IMG/VR virus record: IMGVR_UViG_3300036828_000612
Span: 1 to 60,563 of that record
Source of the DNA: a virus
Lineage: Duplodnaviria; Caudoviricetes
Strand: one strand, 5' to 3'
Length of the DNA stretch: 60,563 nt
Notes under the pieces: generated by a model
What the model was told of the DNA's origin: nothing
What the model saw: only the letters and a program-made list of their open reading frames with translations
Databases searched by the model: none
Position numbers and translations under genes: made by a program
Part shown: positions 10,244 to 57,385 of the stretch, one piece after another
Layout of the letters: every line of letters starts with the position of its first letter
Numbering within the stretch: position 1 is the stretch's first letter

Positions 10244-10355
10244 GTTGCTTAAGGCGTTAGATAAGCTATTCCAGGAATTGGAGGATATCCAGGACACCAT
10301 AAACCTGCTGGATGCGCTGAAGAAGAAAACACAAGAGAATGAGGAGTCGTCATGA
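10206..10355 (+). CDS. Small coiled-coil protein
   Basis: Manual translation MNKPQPIDKNVNELLKALDKLFQELEDIQ...; GAGG RBS; overlaps the Gp157 start. Confidence 0.5.
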   Translation: MNKPQPIDKNVNELLKALDKLFQELEDIQDTINLLDALKKKTQENEESS

Positions 10356-10888
10356 GCAAATTTATGACCAAGCCACCCAGTTCCTTCGCTCTGGAAGCAG
10401 CGATGACCGCGCTGTTGCAGGCACGCGAACAGCTCATGACCATCTCGCCGAACATCGCCGAAGATGTGACCCTGTACCTCGACAGCCTCGAAGGACTCGC
10501 GGAAGGCGATCCGCTCGGTGTGATCGATCGCATTGTTGATCGCAAGCTTCATCTTGAAGACATGCGGCAGGTCGTGGGCGCCAGAAAAACCGATCTCGCC
10601 CAACGGGGCGCCAGACTAGAGCGCGAGGAAGAATACTGGGGCTACGTCCTTTGCCAATTTCTCGATGCGCTTCGCCAAAAATCCTTGGAGCGTCCGACTC
10701 ACACGCTGAGCATTCACGACGGTCTGCCAGAGTTGATCTTGGAAGAGGAAAAGCTGGCCGAGCGGTTTCTGCGGGTCTACAAGACCCCAAACAAGACCGA
10801 GATTCGTCAGGCGTTGAAAGCCGGAGAGCATGTCAATGGTGCAGAGCTCGGTGATAAAAAGCCAATTCTCACGATAAGGACAAAGTAA
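10352..10888 (+). CDS. Siphovirus Gp157 family protein
   Basis: YLDSLEG...PNKTEIRQALKAGEHVNGAEL...LTIR. Confidence 0.85.
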   Translation: MSKFMTKPPSSFALEAAMTALLQAREQLMTISPNIAEDVTLYLDSLEGLAEGDPLGVIDRIVDRKLHLEDMRQVVGARKTDLAQRGARLEREEEYWGYVLCQFLDALRQKSLERPTHTLSIHDGLPELILEEEKLAERFLRVYKTPNKTEIRQALKAGEHVNGAELGDKKPILTIRTK

Positions 10889-10889
10889 C

Positions 10890-11858
10890 ATGGCAGATTT
10901 GCCGGTTGCATCCTCCCATCACGCAGCCCCGATGCGCTATGACGACATAGAACGCTTGGCCGGCGCCATAGCTAAAAGCCGTCTGTTCGGTATCACGACT
11001 CAGGATCAGGCCATAGCCCTGATGATGATCGCCCATGCGGAAGGCCGTCATCCGGCCCTTGCCGCGAGGGATTATGATATCATTAGCGGGCGCCCCGCCA
11101 AGAAAGCGGAGTCCATGCTGCGAGACTTTCTCGATGCCGGCGGCAAGGTGGAGTGGCACGCTCTAAGCGACGAAATTGCTGATGCGACATTCTCGCACCC
11201 CGCTGGCGGCAAGGCGCGTATTTCCTGGGATATGGCCAGAGCTGAAAAGGCCGGATTGGCAGGAAAGGACATGTACAAGAAGTTTCCCCGCCAAATGCTC
11301 CGTAGCCGCACTGTATCAGAGGGCGTACGCACTATCTGGCCGACAGCAACAAGTGGGTTATATGTTCCTGAAGAGGCCCACGACATGGCCACAGACGACA
11401 CGAATAGCAACAAGACAACGTTGGATCATGTGCCGTCGCCAAAGATGCAACAGTCTCCCCGCCTGGAAGCTCCTGCCCCCGTCGCGTACGCTGTGCATAC
11501 TGTGTCCGCAGCGTCGGGACCGATCTCATTCAACAATTCCGCAGCGACACCGCCGCCGCCGAACCAGCAGAACGACCCGCCACCCCCGTCGTCGGACGAC
11601 AACGATGACACCGCTTTGTGGATAGCAAACCTGCGTGCCAAGCTAGCTGGCGCCGAGTACGGGACTGTCCTGAAGATTTCCAAGCTCAGGACCGTCACCG
11701 AGGCTCTGGCGCATGGACCGCCGGAAGTCCAGCGGATAGTGAACGAGCTGCTAGCTGATGCTTATGAAGCATGCGCGCAACGCGCAGACGAGCCGGTAAT
11801 CGAAAACGACCCACTGAGCGAAGTATTTCCGCCACAACTGCGGACACCGCTAGTATGA
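10890..11858 (+). CDS. RecT/Redbeta-like single-strand annealing protein
   Basis: AIAKSRLFG...AARDYDIISGRPA...MARAEKAGL...YKKFPRQMLRSR...GLYVPEE. Confidence 0.75.
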   Translation: MADLPVASSHHAAPMRYDDIERLAGAIAKSRLFGITTQDQAIALMMIAHAEGRHPALAARDYDIISGRPAKKAESMLRDFLDAGGKVEWHALSDEIADATFSHPAGGKARISWDMARAEKAGLAGKDMYKKFPRQMLRSRTVSEGVRTIWPTATSGLYVPEEAHDMATDDTNSNKTTLDHVPSPKMQQSPRLEAPAPVAYAVHTVSAASGPISFNNSAATPPPPNQQNDPPPPSSDDNDDTALWIANLRAKLAGAEYGTVLKISKLRTVTEALAHGPPEVQRIVNELLADAYEACAQRADEPVIENDPLSEVFPPQLRTPLV

Positions 11859-12394
11859 GCGCCACCTACGCCGCCACCCGCGCCACCGACGCCGCCACCC
11901 GCGCCGCTACGCTCGACGCCACCTGGGCCGCCACCCGCGTCGCCACCGCCGCCGCCACCATCGATGACACCTGGGCCGCCATTGCCGCCACCACCGACGC
12001 CGCCACCCGCCTCGCCACCGACCTCGCCACCTACGCCGCCACCGACCGCGCCACCTACGCCGCCACCCGCGACGCCACCCGCGACGCCACCCGCGACGCC
12101 ACCTGGGCCGCCACCTACGCCGCCACCCGCGACGCCACCCGCGACGCCACCCGCGACGCCACCTGGGCCGCCACCTACGCCGCCACCGACCGCGCCACCT
12201 ACGCCGCCACCCGCGACGCCACCCGCGACGCCACCTCCGCCGCCACCGACCGCGCCACCTGGGCCGCCACTCGCGACGCCACCCGCGCCACTCGCGACGC
12301 CGCCACTCGCGACGCCACTCGCGCCACTCGCGACGCCACCAGTGCCGCCACCGACGCCGCCACCCGAGCCGCGGCCTTGAAAGCTGCCCAATGA
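11855..12394 (+). CDS. Stand-alone xxAT tetrapeptide-repeat protein 1 (179 aa)
   Basis: ATGA overlap with RecT and with the next gene; about 40 YAAT/RDAT/WAAT/DRAT units. Confidence 0.7.
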   Translation: MSATYAATRATDAATRAATLDATWAATRVATAAATIDDTWAAIAATTDAATRLATDLATYAATDRATYAATRDATRDATRDATWAATYAATRDATRDATRDATWAATYAATDRATYAATRDATRDATSAATDRATWAATRDATRATRDAATRDATRATRDATSAATDAATRAAALKAAQ

Positions 12395-12622
12395 TGAACA
12401 CCAGTGTCCGCGATGCCATCTGGGCCGCCACCCTCTACGCCACCCGAATTGCCACCTCCGATGCTACCTATTGGGCCACTTACACTGCCACCTATGCCGC
12501 CACGCTCGACGCCACCAGTGAAGCCACCGGCGACGCCACCATCGATGCCACCGATGCCGGCACCCTCGCCGCCACCATCGATGCCACCGACGCCGCCACC
12601 CGCGCCGCCACCGACGCCGCCA
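11861..12622 (+). repeat. 12 bp periodic NNNNNN-GCCACC minisatellite with an exact 60 bp tandem duplication
   Basis: 12061-12120 is identical to 12121-12180. Confidence 0.9.
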
Positions 12623-12654
12623 TTCTTGACACAACAAGCGCAAAAGGAGACTGA
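12391..12654 (+). CDS. Stand-alone xxAT tetrapeptide-repeat protein 2 (87 aa)
   Basis: WAATLYATRIATSDATYWATYTATYAATLDAT...; more synonymous divergence than copy 1; ends 1 nt before the next ATG. Confidence 0.7.
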   Translation: MMNTSVRDAIWAATLYATRIATSDATYWATYTATYAATLDATSEATGDATIDATDAGTLAATIDATDAATRAATDAAILDTTSAKGD

Positions 12655-12655
12655 A

Positions 12656-13702
12656 ATGGCAAAAACCAAAATCAAGGCGACAAAATATAGCCTGACACCA
12701 GAACACCGGGCGCAATTCGAGCCATGGCGGGACAAATGGATTAGCAACGCTATGTCCACCGCGGCCATGACGAACGAAGATCAAGAAATCTGTCGAGATG
12801 CCGTCGTTCGGCTCTATCGAGCCGCGAATCTACCGCCGCCGCAAAACATTGTCTTTACGACATCGCCCTTTGCTGCGCGTTTTGCGGCGGGCTTCGCCGC
12901 ATGGATTTGGCATCTGCGCGCCACAAATTTGCCTGTTCCCACCCCCAGGGAACCCATCTTTACCGCATCAGAACCCAACCTGGACAACTGGTATGTCTGT
13001 TCATCGGGGATGGTCGAGCTCGCAGATGCCCTAGGCGTTGGGAAAGCCGGACTGGATTGCGCCGTGATGGCTGGCGATCGCCTCCACCAAGGTGGCAACC
13101 AATGGCCGTCCTACGATTCCTTCCTGTCCTTCTTTCGTCACATCGCCAAGCTGCCATTGGACTACTCCAAATGGGATGCATGGGAGACGCTCGCGCTGCA
13201 TTCGGGCCCTCGGTACGTGCACGCTAATTTCTGCATCATATCCGACCGGCCGGAACTCTTGGTGGTCGACGACGCCAGGCGCCCACACAGCTTGACGGGG
13301 CCGTTCTGCCGCTGGCGGGATGGCTCGGCGCTCTATGCGGTGCACGGGACGCGAATACCGGCAAAGTGGATCGAAGACAAAGACTTCCTAACCCCGTCAA
13401 TGGCTCTTAAATGGGGAAATATCGAGGAACGCCGCGCGGCATGCGAGATTCTGGGATGGAACAACATCCTAGACGAATTGCGTGCAAAAGTGATAGACAC
13501 GGACTACGACCCTGAAATTGGTCAACTCGTTGAGGTAACGATGCCAAATGTTGGCCGACAGAGGTTTCTGCGCGTTCGATGCGGAACCGGCCGTGACTTC
13601 GCCATTCCGGTGGCACTATCGGAGACGACCGCGTTAGAAGCAAATGCCAGAAGCTATGGAATATCGCCTGACTTTCTACGAAAAAAGGAGCATCGCACAT
13701 GA
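12656..13702 (+). CDS. DUF6745-like protein (348 aa)
   Basis: AAGGAG RBS; FCIISDRPE...DDARRPHSLTGP...WRDGSALYAVHGTRIP...NIEERRAACEILGW...LRVRCGTGRDF...ALEANA. Confidence 0.8.
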   Translation: MAKTKIKATKYSLTPEHRAQFEPWRDKWISNAMSTAAMTNEDQEICRDAVVRLYRAANLPPPQNIVFTTSPFAARFAAGFAAWIWHLRATNLPVPTPREPIFTASEPNLDNWYVCSSGMVELADALGVGKAGLDCAVMAGDRLHQGGNQWPSYDSFLSFFRHIAKLPLDYSKWDAWETLALHSGPRYVHANFCIISDRPELLVVDDARRPHSLTGPFCRWRDGSALYAVHGTRIPAKWIEDKDFLTPSMALKWGNIEERRAACEILGWNNILDELRAKVIDTDYDPEIGQLVEVTMPNVGRQRFLRVRCGTGRDFAIPVALSETTALEANARSYGISPDFLRKKEHRT

Positions 13703-14043
13703 CCAAACCAGTCACTAAATCTCCCAGCTTTCAGGGAGACATTGCTGTCTTTCGAATCCAAAGCATCCCAAAGGACGCCGTCCGGATGGACACTGCCGGC
13801 CAGCATCATGTTTTGGCGCACAGCGAAACCGGGCATCATCATGTTATCGGCACGAAGTCGGCGACATTGTTCATCGACAAAATGAACGCATTCATCATGT
13901 ATTTGGATGTCGCGGAATCCTCTGCGATTGAGCACCTGAAGGACTTTGACCAGCACGAGCCGCTGGGCCTCACTCCCGGAAAGTACGAGCTCCATCGGCA
14001 ACAGGAATACATCGCTGACGCATGGCGTCCCGTGACGGACTGA
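13699..14043 (+). CDS. His-rich partner of DUF6745 (QGD...HSETGHHH...H...RQQEY family)
   Basis: FQGDI, LAHSETGHHH, EHL...HEPLGLTPGKYELHRQQEY; ATGA overlap. Confidence 0.75.
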   Translation: MTKPVTKSPSFQGDIAVFRIQSIPKDAVRMDTAGQHHVLAHSETGHHHVIGTKSATLFIDKMNAFIMYLDVAESSAIEHLKDFDQHEPLGLTPGKYELHRQQEYIADAWRPVTD

Positions 14044-14049
14044 GCTTCT

Positions 14050-14841
14050 TCAGCCAACGATCTGTGGAACTATCGTCTTGATGGCGATGGTCTTAGAGGC
14101 TGGTGGTGGCGGTGTCACCACCAGCCTCGGGTCTGTGAAAGGACCAGTCCAGGACGGCATCGCGGGCGGCACAGCTACGTCCTGATACCACTGGTTGCCC
14201 GCATTGACATGCCACATGCCGCCGGGCGCGAGCTTCAACACACCTGTGACGTTGGCGGTGTTCGCATCTGTCACACCAGCCACCGCCACTTTTGCGCCCG
14301 TCGTGATAGTCCACGCACGTAATGTGTGATCGATGACTGATGGCACGCCGTTGACGGCCTGGGTGGATATGAACGTACCATCGGGGCTCTCGGTGACAGC
14401 CGGCGGCGGTGTCACCACCAGTCTTGGGTCCGACTTAGGACCAGTCCACGATGGCATGGCAGGCGCGGCGGCCGTGTTCTGATACCACTGCCCGGCCTTG
14501 TTGACCTGCCACATGACACCGGCCAGCTTCAGAATGCCGGCAACATTGGCTGTGTTTGTGTCAGTCACACCGGCAACCGCCACTTGCAAGCCAGCCGTGA
14601 TGGTCCACGCACGCAATGCATGATCGATGATCGATGGCACGCCATTGACGGCCACGGTGGTAACGAATGTGCCGTCCGGGCTCTCGGTAACAGTCGGTGG
14701 CGGGGGCGGCGGGAGCGTCCCTGCTGCGGTTTCCAGTGCTGCGACTTTTGTCGCGGTGGCAGTGATTGTGGCAACAGCCGTGGTGATGGCGGCGGCAGAC
14801 GCGCGCAGCTGATCCGCCAGTGGGGTTGGTACAGTGGCCAT
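14050..14841 (-). CDS. Protein with two ESPDGT...DPR beta-rich repeats; last gene of the late operon
   Basis: Two ~95 aa repeats joined by Pro-rich linkers; N-terminal Ala/Thr helix. Confidence 0.75.
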   Translation of the reverse strand: MATVPTPLADQLRASAAAITTAVATITATATKVAALETAAGTLPPPPPPTVTESPDGTFVTTVAVNGVPSIIDHALRAWTITAGLQVAVAGVTDTNTANVAGILKLAGVMWQVNKAGQWYQNTAAAPAMPSWTGPKSDPRLVVTPPPAVTESPDGTFISTQAVNGVPSVIDHTLRAWTITTGAKVAVAGVTDANTANVTGVLKLAPGGMWHVNAGNQWYQDVAVPPAMPSWTGPFTDPRLVVTPPPPASKTIAIKTIVPQIVG

Positions 14842-54917: not shown

Positions 54918-55303
54918 AACGGCACGATGGCATAGCCGGCCGCGATGATGAAAATCAGGCCGTGCCAATTGAAGTAGGCGAGCGGCAGCGCCGTGATGCC
55001 CATGCTGTAGGTGCCATGGGAATTGAGCCCGCCCGCATCTTGCTGCCATGGATTGCCAGAGCGGCCCATCCCGATACCGCCGAAGTTAGGGATGGCGCAG
55101 CCCAGAAAGCCCGATAGGATCAGCGTGAGTGACCAGAGCTGATGCGAGCCCAGGAAGCAGCCGGCGGCGAGCGTTGCGCCGAAGAACGCCCGGACCGGAT
55201 AATCACCGAGGTTGATGCCCGTCCATTGCTCGAATGATCCGCCCGCCACTCGGCGACCGAGGCCACCCAGCAACGCGGAAGCAATGACCAGCAGCGCTAT
55301 CAC
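54776..55303 (-). CDS. Multi-pass membrane protein
   Basis: GTG start overlapping the upstream stop; several TM segments; ELGELFWG. Confidence 0.7.
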   Translation of the reverse strand: MIALLVIASALLGGLGRRVAGGSFEQWTGINLGDYPVRAFFGATLAAGCFLGSHQLWSLTLILSGFLGCAIPNFGGIGMGRSGNPWQQDAGGLNSHGTYSMGITALPLAYFNWHGLIFIIAAGYAIVPFYELGWRITGKAGRPGLPLGLRGGSELGELFWGAACGIGAFAAAYVT

Positions 55304-56079
55304 TTGGATGCCGCCGCCCTCGCCCGATGCGCTGCCTCGATGGTGCCCAAGTCCTGCGCTGCGATCTGGCACAGGAAGTCGCAGGCTGGCGCGATCGGTT
55401 CCAGCGTCGGCCAATCCGCGGGGATCTCGTCGATGAACAGCCGCACATCGGCGATGCGTGTCAGCCGCGCGCCCAGTCGCCGGGACAGATCGGCCATGCG
55501 CGCGAACTCGACCGGGAAATGCAGCCTGATTGCCGCCCAGTAATCCGGTGACGTGGCTTTCGGGCAAGGCAGGCAGTTGTTGTTCTGGAACCCGAGGCCA
55601 TACATTGCCGGCAATGCAATGCCGGCGCCGCGCACGATCGCATGGCAGGCGGCCTTATCGAGCCCGGCTGCGATCAGCGGTGTCTCGATTGTCAACTCGT
55701 GGAACACATGCCGCAGCCGTGCCGCCCGTGCCTGGTCGTTCGCGTCGCAGGTATAGCCGAACACGTGCACATCATCGCCATGCTGGAAGGCATGCCGCGG
55801 AGCGACCTTGAGGATGCCGGTGCATGGAGCGCCATCGTTGCCGGCGAGGTATTTCCGGCGCTCCCACACGTCCCATGTGTCGGCGTATTCGTCGGAGCGC
55901 AGACGGACGACATCAACACCCCACCAGCGCTGGCAGTCGTGCAAGAACCGCTCATTGTCCGGGTGCTCGGCGTTGGTCTCGCAGTAGGCTACGACACCGC
56001 CGGGGTGCGCTTTGATGTCGAGCGCGATGGCAACGGCGGACGCAGTGCCGCAGCCGAACCAGCGGACGCGCCGGGTCAT
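55300..56079 (-). CDS. PAPS-reductase-like (PP-loop) phage protein
   Basis: WFGCGTASAVA, EHPDNERF, APCTGILK, VFGYT, TPLI, MYGLGFQNNNCLPCPK. Confidence 0.8.
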   Translation of the reverse strand: MTRRVRWFGCGTASAVAIALDIKAHPGGVVAYCETNAEHPDNERFLHDCQRWWGVDVVRLRSDEYADTWDVWERRKYLAGNDGAPCTGILKVAPRHAFQHGDDVHVFGYTCDANDQARAARLRHVFHELTIETPLIAAGLDKAACHAIVRGAGIALPAMYGLGFQNNNCLPCPKATSPDYWAAIRLHFPVEFARMADLSRRLGARLTRIADVRLFIDEIPADWPTLEPIAPACDFLCQIAAQDLGTIEAAHRARAAASK

Positions 56080-56106
56080 GCCGCCGCCCTCGCCCGATGC
56101 GCTGCC
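55308..56106. repeat. 29 bp direct repeats (55308-55336 and 56078-56106) bracketing the PAPS-like gene
   Basis: atgccgccgccctcgcccgatgcgctgcc occurs exactly twice. Confidence 0.9.
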
Positions 56107-56188
56107 GCCAATTCGGCGCGCAGCCGTGCTATCTCCATTCGGGCTGACGCGATTTCGTTGATTGCTTCCAGGATCAGCGCCCCCGCGC

Positions 56189-57385
56189 TCACGTTGCCGC
56201 TCCGCGTCGGACGATCGTCGCTCGCCACCCCAGGCGGCGGAAGCTCGCACGCAGCCTGTCCGCATGCTGCCCGCGATAGTGGTGAAGGATCGGTGCGGTT
56301 ATCAGATCAAGCGCCTGGTCGAGACTGTCTTCCACCGCCTCGGGATCGCTCATCGTCCACAGCGCTGCGAGGTCGGCCTGCCGCTTCGGCAAACATGCCG
56401 GCGAATACCAGATGCACTCTTTGTCGGTCGTACCGTTGCCAGAATATGTGTGCTTGCCGCGCGACCACTCGACCGCATCCCATCTTGGCAGATCGTAATC
56501 GCCGAGATGCCCGCACAGCGCGATTCTGAGATGAGCGTTGTTACGAGCCCACGCTTCGACCGCGTCGGCCACCGGTGCCGCGTTGCCATACAGCCGTTCG
56601 TAGGAGCGATAGGGCGGATCGAGGAACACCGCCGTATCGTTGCCGCCGAAATGGTTGTTGAGGCACCGCGACCAGTCACCATGCACGATGCGGACCCGCT
56701 CAAGCCGCGCGGCGAGCTGGTGCAGCCAGCGCCATGCCGTCCGGCCCGAGGATGTCCAGAGGATCGGTTCGCCCATCCCCGCGTTGCTGGCGTGGGGCAC
56801 CTGGCCGATGGCCTGCACGCCCATCCCCGCGTCGCTGGCGTGGGGCACCTGGCCGATGGCCTGCACGCCCATCCCCGCGTCGCTGGCGTGGGGCACCTGG
56901 CCGATGGCCTGCACGCCCATCCCCGCGTCGCTGGCGTGGGGCACTTGATCCCACTTATCCGAGTTGCGCGGGCTATCCTCGCACCAACCCGAACCGATCC
57001 AACTGCACTGGCCCCACAGCCACCATCCCGCCACGGTCGCATCGCCAGGCCAGTGCGGATCGGCCAACGCCGCGCCAATGCGCTCGCGCTGTGCCATCAG
57101 CCAACCATGCCGCGCGCCGAGATCGATGTGCGATACCGGATAGTCGGCGGCTTCCGCCACCGCGCCTGGCTGGTGTTTGGTCGCGCGCCAGAAGTTCGCG
57201 AGGAAGCCCGAGGCGTCGTTGACCACTTCCAGGTCGGCGATGCGGGGGGCGGCCAGCAGCACGGCGCAGGAGCCCATGAACGGCTCGATATATTGCGACG
57301 GGGCGCCGAGACGTTCCCAGACCTCCGATGCAATGGAGCGCTTGCCACCGAAGTAGGGGAATGGTGCCAACAGCGCGGCGCTCAT
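56189..57385 (-). CDS. DNA adenine methyltransferase (Dam/D12 class)
   Basis: PFPYFGGK, YIEPFMGS, EVVND, FLDPPY, ECIW.S motifs. Confidence 0.9.
   Translation of the reverse strand: MSAALLAPFPYFGGKRSIASEVWERLGAPSQYIEPFMGSCAVLLAAPRIADLEVVNDASGFLANFWRATKHQPGAVAEAADYPVSHIDLGARHGWLMAQRERIGAALADPHWPGDATVAGWWLWGQCSWIGSGWCEDSPRNSDKWDQVPHASDAGMGVQAIGQVPHASDAGMGVQAIGQVPHASDAGMGVQAIGQVPHASNAGMGEPILWTSSGRTAWRWLHQLAARLERVRIVHGDWSRCLNNHFGGNDTAVFLDPPYRSYERLYGNAAPVADAVEAWARNNAHLRIALCGHLGDYDLPRWDAVEWSRGKHTYSGNGTTDKECIWYSPACLPKRQADLAALWTMSDPEAVEDSLDQALDLITAPILHHYRGQHADRLRASFRRLGWRATIVRRGAAT
56769..56945. repeat. 48 bp in-frame tandem repeat (about 3.7 copies) in the MTase
   Basis: QVPHASDAGMGVQAIG x3 plus a partial fourth copy. 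Confidence 0.95.

Follow-up and report, generated by a model that had tools for sequence, protein, structure and literature searches.

A phage module of a DUF6745 protein and a small His-motif protein, and its probable split form with separately encoded xxAT repeat arrays

Introduction

The DUF6745 domain family (Pfam PF20530) and the corresponding families in PHROGs are catalogued as unknown. The closest described genes are those of a cultured phage, Microcystis phage Ma-LMM01, in which gp174 (a DUF6745 protein; PF20530, E = 1.3e-14) adjoins gp175, a relative of the small protein called p114 below, and both lie between the DNA polymerase gene and the uracil-DNA glycosylase gene. The cluster assignments in the Ma-LMM01 infection transcriptome place gp174 and gp175 in Cluster 2, subclass B5, as they do the uracil-DNA glycosylase gene gp173; that phase is termed 'middle', and it also includes UvsW, UvsX and a RecD-like helicase (PMC5780444). 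Here we analyze a related locus in a 60,563-b stretch of phage DNA (the window), which is the whole of IMG/VR record IMGVR_UViG_3300036828_000612 (class linear, estimated completeness 76%). The locus consists of four genes: two, ORF1 and ORF2, that encode free-standing proteins made of x-x-Ala-Thr (xxAT) tetrapeptides, followed by a DUF6745 gene and the p114 gene.

As in Ma-LMM01, the small partner is adjacent to the DUF6745 gene and the genes lie among replication and repair genes, and the C-terminal domain of the window's DUF6745 protein is homologous to that of gp174 (BFVD structural match, E = 7.8e-16). Gp174 has no xxAT tract, and there were no free repeat open reading frames (ORFs) in the stretch of Ma-LMM01 viewed. 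Unlike gp174, the window encodes a tract, as two separate genes. We propose that the four genes are probably a rare split-gene variant of a widespread, uncharacterized phage module, with the repeat array provided in trans. The pairing with p114, the pattern of tract variation and the recurrent split are undescribed as far as our literature search goes; the library searched held nothing on DUF6745/PF20530 or on hypervariable tetrapeptide repeats in phages.

Results

Two free-standing xxAT repeat genes precede the DUF6745 and p114 genes

The rightward Gam/RecT operon of the window ends with four tightly coupled genes, whose features are as follows.

11855..12394, + strand: ORF1, free-standing xxAT repeat gene 1 (179 aa); starts in an ATGA overlap with the stop codon of the preceding RecT-like gene
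12049..12187, + strand: exact repeat block in ORF1, 60-nt unit, 2.3 copies (79-nt match at offset 60)
12391..12654, + strand: ORF2, free-standing xxAT repeat gene 2 (87 aa); ATGA overlap with ORF1
12656..13702, + strand: DUF6745 protein gene (348 aa), usual internal tract absent; Pfam PF20530, E = 1.6e-14
13699..14043, + strand: p114 (114 aa), with QGD, SETGHHH, H86 and C-terminal Asp motifs; phrog_27831, E = 4e-7

The stop codon of ORF2 and the start codon of the DUF6745 gene are separated by a 1-nt gap, and the start of p114 overlaps the DUF6745 stop as ATGA. There is an AAGGAG Shine-Dalgarno sequence upstream of both core genes (DUF6745 and p114). A scan for promoters and terminators was uninformative, giving two promoter-like sites where 2.2 were expected and none on the + strand.

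ORF1 contains 35 four-residue units ending in AT, together with three units of three residues, two of five and one of eleven. ORF2 contains 13 four-residue units and has non-repeat termini (MMNTSVRDAIW at the start, AILDTTSAKGD at the end). Most units of ORF1 have the codons GCC ACC; ORF2 is more degenerate and has more synonymous variation. In 11860-12372, Tandem Repeats Finder reported 43.2 copies of a 12-nt period and also 8.5 copies of a 60-nt period, and the exact match at offset 60 is 79 nt long (12049-12127 equals 12109-12187). An earlier note on this DNA, made from the sequence alone, had described four coupled genes closing a rightward early operon, two proteins composed almost wholly of x-x-Ala-Thr tetrads and an exact 60-bp duplication, and all three descriptions hold.

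Neither repeat protein matched a family in Pfam, PHROGs, NCBIfam or PADLOC, or any catalogued repeat family, pentapeptide repeats included. Their tetrad vocabulary (RD, YA, WA, DR, DA and others) is that of the tracts inside DUF6745 homologues. A phmmer search with ORF1 against 1.84 billion representative sequences gave 203 matches at E ≤ 1e-3, of which 150 were listed. Among the matches listed, 89 of the 144 that were newly checked carry a DUF6745 domain according to our own hidden Markov model (HMM), and the other six were DUF6745 homologues already known from the DUF6745 search described below. Because these matches are mostly DUF6745 proteins, the xxAT tract is essentially a hallmark of that family. 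Most of the remaining checked matches were Ala/Thr-rich proteins of low identity; long Ala/Thr-rich matches with no DUF6745 domain and 20-35% identity were treated as compositional. A few short proteins are mostly tract; one of them (P0215, 118 aa) has a helix-turn-helix-like N-terminus followed by an xxAT tract, an architecture indicating that the tract can be attached to a domain other than DUF6745.

DUF6745 proteins usually carry the tract internally

Residues 172-337 of the window's DUF6745 protein match PF20530 (54.1 bits against a cut-off of 27), with confirmation at the DNA level, so that the HMM search proposed in the earlier note upholds its DUF6745-like assignment. The tract is no part of the Pfam model. 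A search for homologues found 809 relatives at E ≤ 1e-3, 120 of which were listed. With a tract defined as a run of at least three xx[AGSV][TS] tetrads, an internal xxAT tract was present in 98 of 119 homologues among the matches listed, with a length of 12-252 aa (median 52). It mostly begins at residue 85-95, right behind a ...GFAAxIW segment, indicating a common insertion point. In the internal tetrads (n = 1475), position 1 is mostly R, D, Y, E or W and position 2 is A or D, followed by Ala-Thr.

The window protein departs from the usual architecture of the subfamily (N-terminal segment, internal xxAT tract, C-terminal domain). It has no tract detectable by regular expression, only 'LRAT' and a short linker at the insertion point, and its reading frame is continuous over the insertion site, with a non-repeat linker. 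The motifs that had been picked out in the earlier note are all present (SPF...AAWIW and LRAT in the DUF6745 protein; QGD, HSETGHHH and RQQEY as well), and its statement that homologues have an internal tetrapeptide tract after AAWIW was correct.

To view the genes in their surroundings, we retrieved 113 related loci, 33 of them from genomes and the others from 80 of the 154 viral relatives. In the related loci (n = 113), the tract lies inside the DUF6745 reading frame. Its length can differ between close relatives: proteins with cores 96-100% identical had tracts of unequal length, and pairs with 100% core identity had tracts of 16 and 72, 32 and 176, 36 and 80, or 36 and 88 aa. In one locus (L076, 2414-4768), an Ala/Thr/Asp/Val-rich degenerate insert of ~430 aa replaces the clean tract, and in another (L060, 3995-5800) the array is AT-rich and degenerate, of the form xx[AI]T; arrays seem to decay with age, leaving low-complexity linkers. 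There is an in-frame stop within the array of L099 (1-1806), and a frameshift within the tract splits the DUF6745 gene in L047, L087, L090 and L094. These could be sequencing errors, or intermediates toward split genes.

Of 50,697 phage records, only 2 matched the DUF6745 protein. Among viral contigs, a scan with the single protein gave no relative; alignment-based scans did find relatives. Judging from these matches, the DUF6745/p114 family appears to be large and almost confined to uncultivated phages.

Absence of the internal tract is associated with free repeat ORFs

The earlier note had suggested testing whether homologues lacking the internal tract co-occur with stand-alone repeat ORFs. 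We made this comparison in 57 full-length cases, in which both the N- and C-terminal parts were matched, counting the window. The tract was present in 47 of these and absent in 10, the tract-less class comprising loci with no tract or, in one case (L006), with 16 aa only. Free xxAT ORFs on the + strand were found at three of the 10 tract-less loci (the window, L039 and L015) and at none of the 47 tract-bearing loci (Fisher p = 0.004). The proposed association therefore stood; as a universal rule it did not, with seven tract-less loci having no free repeat ORF in the sequence that was available.

Each of the three split loci holds two free xxAT ORFs, of 179 and 87 aa in the window, 166 and at least 149 aa in L039, and 63 and 42 aa in L015. 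L039 is the clearest parallel to the window. There, a tract-less DUF6745 gene is followed by a 166-aa xxAT ORF whose ATG overlaps the DUF6745 stop, then by a 63-aa ORF, p114 and a second xxAT ORF that runs off the contig end. The L039 phage has 40-46% GC, and its arrays are islands of 68-70% GC. In L015, the 63-aa xxAT ORF is upstream and the 42-aa ORF downstream, and both end in EFI[EA]D.

We built a maximum-likelihood tree of 49 proteins from which the tract columns had been removed by a fill filter. The three split loci were in three places among the fused forms, and well-supported branches force at least three changes. Because the three lie in separate clades, the split arose repeatedly.

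DUF6745 and p114 form a conserved pair

Clustering of 1228 ORFs from the related loci showed that p114 is the only conserved neighbor of DUF6745. A tblastn search with p114 found it as a neighbor in 57 of 112 loci. With a p114 HMM built from 43 aligned members, 88 of 113 loci had a homologue directly beside the DUF6745 gene, on one side of it or the other and always on its strand; the window likewise has its p114 homologue adjacent and on the same strand. There are at least 3716 p114 homologues.

Window p114 belongs to the PHROG 27831 family, by its profile match and by the presence of the conserved columns. In 43 sequences, Q12, G13, E43, H48, H86 and D114 are invariant and G45 and H46 nearly so. 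The family pattern is Q-G-[DE] near the N-terminus, E-x-G-H-x-H, a further His and a C-terminal Asp (14038-14040 in the window). DUF6745 proteins in turn end in ...RT, with T348 (13697-13699 in the window) present in at least 90% of sequences. This conservation of the last residues of both proteins suggests that free C-termini matter.

The His/Glu pattern of p114 is compatible with putative metal binding. Window p114 matched no Pfam family at E ≤ 0.1, no NCBIfam or PADLOC family and no relative among PDB sequences, and a scan of 43 members at E ≤ 1 gave no cupin family. The His/Glu pattern and one automatic source name, 'gentisate 1,2-dioxygenase', are no more than hints of a cupin. Matches of the p114 profile to PDB sequences were due to chance, namely to His-tags of designed proteins. 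The Atlas model of p114 is poor, with a predicted local distance difference test score (pLDDT) of 0.50, and the Atlas assigns PF31129 to structural neighbors of p114.

Fusions also link the two proteins. Three of 27 longer p114 relatives carry PF20530, and most of the others are fusions of an HNH endonuclease with p114. In one protein (P0136), a complete DUF6745 sequence, tract included, runs on past the usual ...VRT end into p114. A profile-profile comparison detected no relationship between the two families (probability 0.2), and because of this an Atlas hint of a p114-like part in DUF6745 proteins is better explained by rare fusions. HNH or GIY-YIG homing-endonuclease genes adjoin the module and are often fused in frame to the p114 N-terminus (P0123, P0125, P0131 and P0141; L015, 5087-5974, - strand; L022, 2357-3247). 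The DUF6745/p114 junction looks like a homing site.

We also predicted the complex of DUF6745 and p114, the only pair covered by complex prediction. The score was 0.60 (runs of 0.60, 0.58 and 0.62), compared to 0.01 for the best control, with at least 85% of contacts in agreement between runs and a partner pLDDT of at least 75. Of 80 solved complexes, 58 reached the mark, as did 2 of 110 mismatched pairs; only seven of the 80 solved complexes, plus both passing mismatches, reached it with a score of 0.60 or under. The prediction thus lends weak support to binding, and we read it as modest because adjacency and fusions had made binding likely beforehand. Together, adjacency in 88 loci, rare fusions and the predicted complex support the conserved two-protein core that had been postulated in the earlier note.

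Predicted structures of the core protein and the tract

The AlphaFold2 model of the window's DUF6745 protein is a single compact body (pLDDT 90.6; predicted template modeling score, pTM, 0.81), and its confidence is lowest at residues ~90-115, the empty insertion loop. Profile searches of PDB sequences with DUF6745 gave nothing, and the model had no Foldseek match in the PDB at E ≤ 1e-3. VIA-align gave a best Z of 5.0 over 71 residues with a root-mean-square deviation of 5.7; WGR-like rows, with Z of 3.7-3.9, were under any useful level and were discarded. In BFVD, the model matched only DUF6745 or uncharacterized proteins. Judged by the model, the body appears to resemble no known PDB fold.

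For the tract, we modeled P0003, a homologue of 421 aa that has the fused form and an identity of 57% in the alignment. Its tract was predicted as two helices, residues 89-140 and 147-185, with a turn in the middle, and the pLDDT of this block was 48-76. Such a helical hairpin is the geometry needed if both ends of the tract return to one loop. The Atlas holds the exact ORF1 protein, and its model has a pLDDT of 0.74 and a pTM of 0.28; the low pTM would be as expected for an elongated helix. With moderate confidence, then, the models suggest that the fused xxAT tract is a helical hairpin, and it is to this extent that the helical repeat envisaged in the earlier note is borne out. The two free ORFs per split locus fit the idea of two arms, and their lengths match it only roughly.

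The free repeat ORFs are probably functional genes

Several points weigh against the view that ORF1 and ORF2 act in trans for the core. Seven of the 10 tract-less loci (L006, L022, L023, L064, L065, L076 and L086) have no free xxAT ORF in the sequence that was available, which means that the core can exist without any tract and speaks against a strict rule by which a tract in trans replaces a tract in cis; the split is a recurrent option. Among these seven, L022/L023 and L064/L065 are near-duplicates, L086 has an upstream flank of only ~570 b, L006 keeps its 16-aa tract and L076 has the degenerate 430-aa insert. The tree was made by a quick method, and L039 was flagged in it as a long branch. 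ORF1 and ORF2 have no canonical Shine-Dalgarno sequence, so their translation would depend on coupling. The free xxAT proteins share no visible terminal motif that might serve for docking, and a search of public runs with this DNA listed no RNA run. Predictions for the tract are of moderate to low confidence, and the weak support from the predicted complex concerns p114 and is silent on the xxAT proteins. Much of the variation in tract length between near-identical proteins could be assembly collapse, about 42 of the 113 loci ending in the tract at a contig end.

Some of these points would be expected if ORF1 and ORF2 were untranslated or functionless leftovers, either a decayed duplicate or an excised tract, and the tract-less pair worked alone. 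The tract-less loci with no repeat ORF, the missing ribosome-binding sites and the lack of a listed RNA run all fit this explanation, and GC-rich repeats keep several frames open through composition alone. However, both ORFs begin at an ATG that overlaps the preceding stop and have non-repeat termini, and Ala-Thr is kept in 35 and 13 units, which decay would erode. The frames are also intact and coupled in the AT-rich L039 phage, and the association recurs in three separate clades and in none of the 47 cases with a tract-bearing gene. We therefore consider it unlikely that the repeat ORFs are leftovers, and favor the interpretation that they are real genes supplying the array to the core.

Arrays are homogeneous except at three nucleotides per unit

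We analyzed variation in 58 arrays with at least 15 perfect ..AT units (2041 units in all), counting departures from the majority base of a unit's own array. The search pattern fixed nt 7, 8, 10 and 11 of the 12-nt unit. Variant units numbered 1094, 866, 141, 114, 627 and 115 at nt 1 to 6; at nt 9 and 12, where all four bases are synonymous, there were only 42 and 77. In other words, 54%, 42% and 31% of units varied at nt 1, 2 and 5, compared to 2-4% at nt 9 and 12. Within 39 of the 58 arrays, nt 9 and 12 were both invariant. There were 5 to 28 distinct units per array.

Between arrays, the synonymous positions differed. The majority base was G, C, T or A in 22, 29, 4 and 3 arrays, respectively, at nt 9, and G, C, A or T in 26, 28, 2 and 2 arrays at nt 12. 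The constant hexamer was GCC ACC, GCG ACG, GCT ACG, GCA ACG or others, depending on the array, and Ala-Thr was constant. Because different arrays encode Ala-Thr with different codons, Ala-Thr is conserved as protein. Diversity thus appears to be kept at three nucleotides only (NNx GNx GCx ACx), with each array homogenized internally, a pattern indicative of concerted evolution in which diversification is focused. It would be explained most simply by slippage or by unequal recombination in register, combined with strong selection for the varied residues.

The near-invariance of synonymous positions within an array might instead mean that the array acts as DNA, for example as a recombination hotspot, a Chi-like signal or a protein-binding site for Gam/RecT, with coding secondary. 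The array directly follows RecT in the window, recombination genes are near in 13 of 35 loci, and the L039 array is a GC island of 68-70% in a 40-46% GC genome. But the arrays share a peptide and no common DNA motif, since the constant hexamer differs among arrays with Ala-Thr constant; all 47 full-length loci with a tract have it in frame within the DUF6745 gene; and RecT of the window type is near in only 4 of 112 loci. A DNA-level role is very unlikely on these grounds, and a Chi-like or other fixed motif (CCACC-rich units beside Gam/RecT) was rejected because the hexamer is not fixed between arrays.

A dedicated mutagenic machine, such as a diversity-generating retroelement, could also diversify the tract in place of recombination and selection, and the variation has the focus one would look for, being restricted in two successive codons (NNx GNx) to positions 1 and 2 of the former and position 2 of the latter. 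Set against this, no match to a reverse transcriptase (PF00078), a gene that such a retroelement would contain, was found in the 60,563-b record, estimated to be 76% complete; repeat scans of 11700-12800 turned up no template copy outside ORF1 and ORF2; and the small vocabularies of distinct units are as expected from unit shuffling. We regard such a machine as highly improbable, and prefer recombination with selection.

Assembly of the array

We checked the assembly against Logan contigs of the sole public run in which this DNA was found, a metagenome from soil and probably the sample from which the record came. Two contigs, of 10603 b and 7106 b, match 11400-12054 and 12207-13200, respectively, with zero differing letters. 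Because separately built contigs reproduce both, the two gene junctions (from RecT to ORF1, and from the ORF1 end through ORF2 to DUF6745) stand. No independent contig bridges 12054-12207. The segment 12025-12236 is covered only by unitigs of 31-66 b, at ~2x the flank depth in two bins and at 38.9 and 43.3 in the other bins. Because only short unitigs cover the exact-repeat block, the check confirms the junctions rather than the copy number of the 60-bp block; changes in that number would stay in frame.

The tract affects the assembly of many related loci. About 42 of 113 begin or end inside it at a contig end (including L004, L009, L011-L013, L017, L018, L021 and L024). In two cases (L082 with L104, and L098 with L106), the gene is divided between the two ends of a single contig, with its N-terminal part on one and its C-terminal part on the other, which implies that the tract breaks short-read assemblies of probably circular phage genomes. 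As a practical point, the xxAT tract disrupts the short-read assembly of many phage genomes.

A repeat-induced misjoin that placed an internal tract upstream of its gene would be in keeping with these broken assemblies, the opposite gene halves and the unbridged 12054-12207, yet it is extremely improbable given contigs that reproduce both flanks with no differing letters (not fully independently, the run being probably the source), a DUF6745 frame that continues over the insertion site through a non-repeat linker, and the unique termini of ORF2.

Genomic context

The phage is of the contractile-tail type (a myovirus), and the record encodes a tail sheath, baseplate, tape measure, portal and major head protein. 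Two genes of the rightward operon directly precede the module.

10352..10888, + strand: Mu Gam-like end-protection gene; phrog_253, E = 1.3e-16; Pfam Sipho_Gp157, E = 6e-12
10890..11858, + strand: RecT-like single-strand annealing protein gene; phrog_561, E = 5e-13; phrog_4171, E = 2.8e-8 (the Pfam RecT match is under the cut-off, 16 bits compared to 24)

RecT homologues of this type are rare near the module in other phages, as noted above. We scanned 118 neighboring same-strand ORFs, drawn from 188 candidates at 35 loci, and 33 of the 118 had their best PHROG match in DNA, RNA and nucleotide metabolism. Within 3 kb of the module, 13 of the 35 loci encode Gam, SSB, a recombination exonuclease or an annealing protein of the RecT, Erf, Sak4 or Gp2.5 type. 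Other neighbors include CI-like repressors, methyltransferases and homing endonucleases. The module is therefore a two-gene cassette of the early or middle replication-recombination region, in otherwise unrelated neighborhoods. PADLOC gave no family at E ≤ 0.1 for any of the four proteins of the window, and NCBIfam gave nothing.

Two other parts of the window were seen in passing. At 14050-14841 on the - strand, converging on the module from the side of the structural operon, there is a gene for a 263-aa protein that consists of two ~110-aa internal repeats (...VTESPDGTF...AVNGVPS.IDH.LRAWTIT...PAMPSWTGP..DPRLVVTPPP) and has no family match. At 55300-57385 on the - strand, near the portal gene, two overlapping genes, one PAPS-reductase-like (phrog_424, E = 1.1e-34) and the other DNA methyltransferase-like (phrog_56), are possibly a DNA-modification pair.

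Discussion

We propose the following view of the module. The conserved core is the DUF6745 protein and the small His-motif protein p114. In most members, a hypervariable xxAT array is placed in a surface loop of DUF6745, between the N-terminal segment and the C-terminal domain. In the window phage this loop is nearly empty, and the array is encoded directly upstream by two genes that are probably coupled in translation. As real genes, ORF1 and ORF2 would take on in trans the part that an internal tract plays in cis. The modular system imagined in the earlier note, in which a variable helical repeat acts in trans for a conserved two-protein core, is thus supported in part: the internal tract, the core pair and the association of the split with free repeats were all found. 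The occurrence of the split in three lineages is a natural experiment, and shows that repeat and core are separable modules.

The array is probably an elongated helical element, folded into a hairpin when fused. In each tetrad, the constant Ala-Thr backbone would present one large variable residue (R, D, Y, E or W) together with one position that is A or D. The 12-nt unit would be expanded, contracted and homogenized in register, with variation retained at three nucleotides only. Among contrasts between variable and synonymous sites that can be read from sequence alone, that of the tract is one of the sharpest; contrasts of this kind are usually a sign of a molecular arms race or of a recognition surface that can be programmed. 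Because of the types of residue that vary (Arg, Asp, Tyr, Trp and Glu), the pattern of concerted evolution and the genomic setting, we suggest that the array may be a rapidly evolving recognition surface, joined to or beside a conserved two-protein effector core. The module would be expressed with replication, recombination and repair genes. Our most likely guess is a function in host takeover or counter-defense, directed at a variable macromolecule of the host or of a rival phage. We set aside the idea that the tract is a DNA mimic, Arg and Asp being about balanced in ORF1 on an informal reading of its composition.

A bolder version of this proposal is that the array is a modular recognition element of a new kind, which reads a repetitive or polymeric target by two-residue 'words', one per tetrad on a constant Ala-Thr helical backbone, in the fashion of transcription activator-like (TAL) effectors. 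This seems quite unlikely. If it were true, the target would be a nucleic acid handled by the neighboring recombination genes or a variable host defense protein, and phages would rewrite the array by in-register recombination, without a reverse transcriptase, and deliver it either fused or as separate proteins.

Three kinds of known system can be compared with the xxAT arrays. Simple-sequence contingency repeats and Ala-rich helical repeat proteins resemble them in that the length of the tract changes between otherwise identical genes. Unlike contingency repeats, however, xxAT arrays have two variable residues out of four, and their length changes stay in frame because the unit is 12 nt, so that there is no switching of the gene on and off. 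Codon-focused variation is typical of genes diversified by retroelements, which the xxAT arrays recall: in the targets of diversity-generating retroelements too, variation is focused on certain codon positions of a phage accessory protein. Those targets have one variable region that is copied from a template, whereas xxAT variation is spread over a tandem array under what appears to be concerted evolution. TAL-effector repeats, from plant pathogens, are units of 33-35 residues with repeat-variable diresidues. Like them, xxAT units are near-identical in DNA except in the codons of two residues, and their number is variable. No homology was found between the two; the xxAT unit is a phage repeat of four residues, in which two vary and a constant Ala-Thr makes up the rest.

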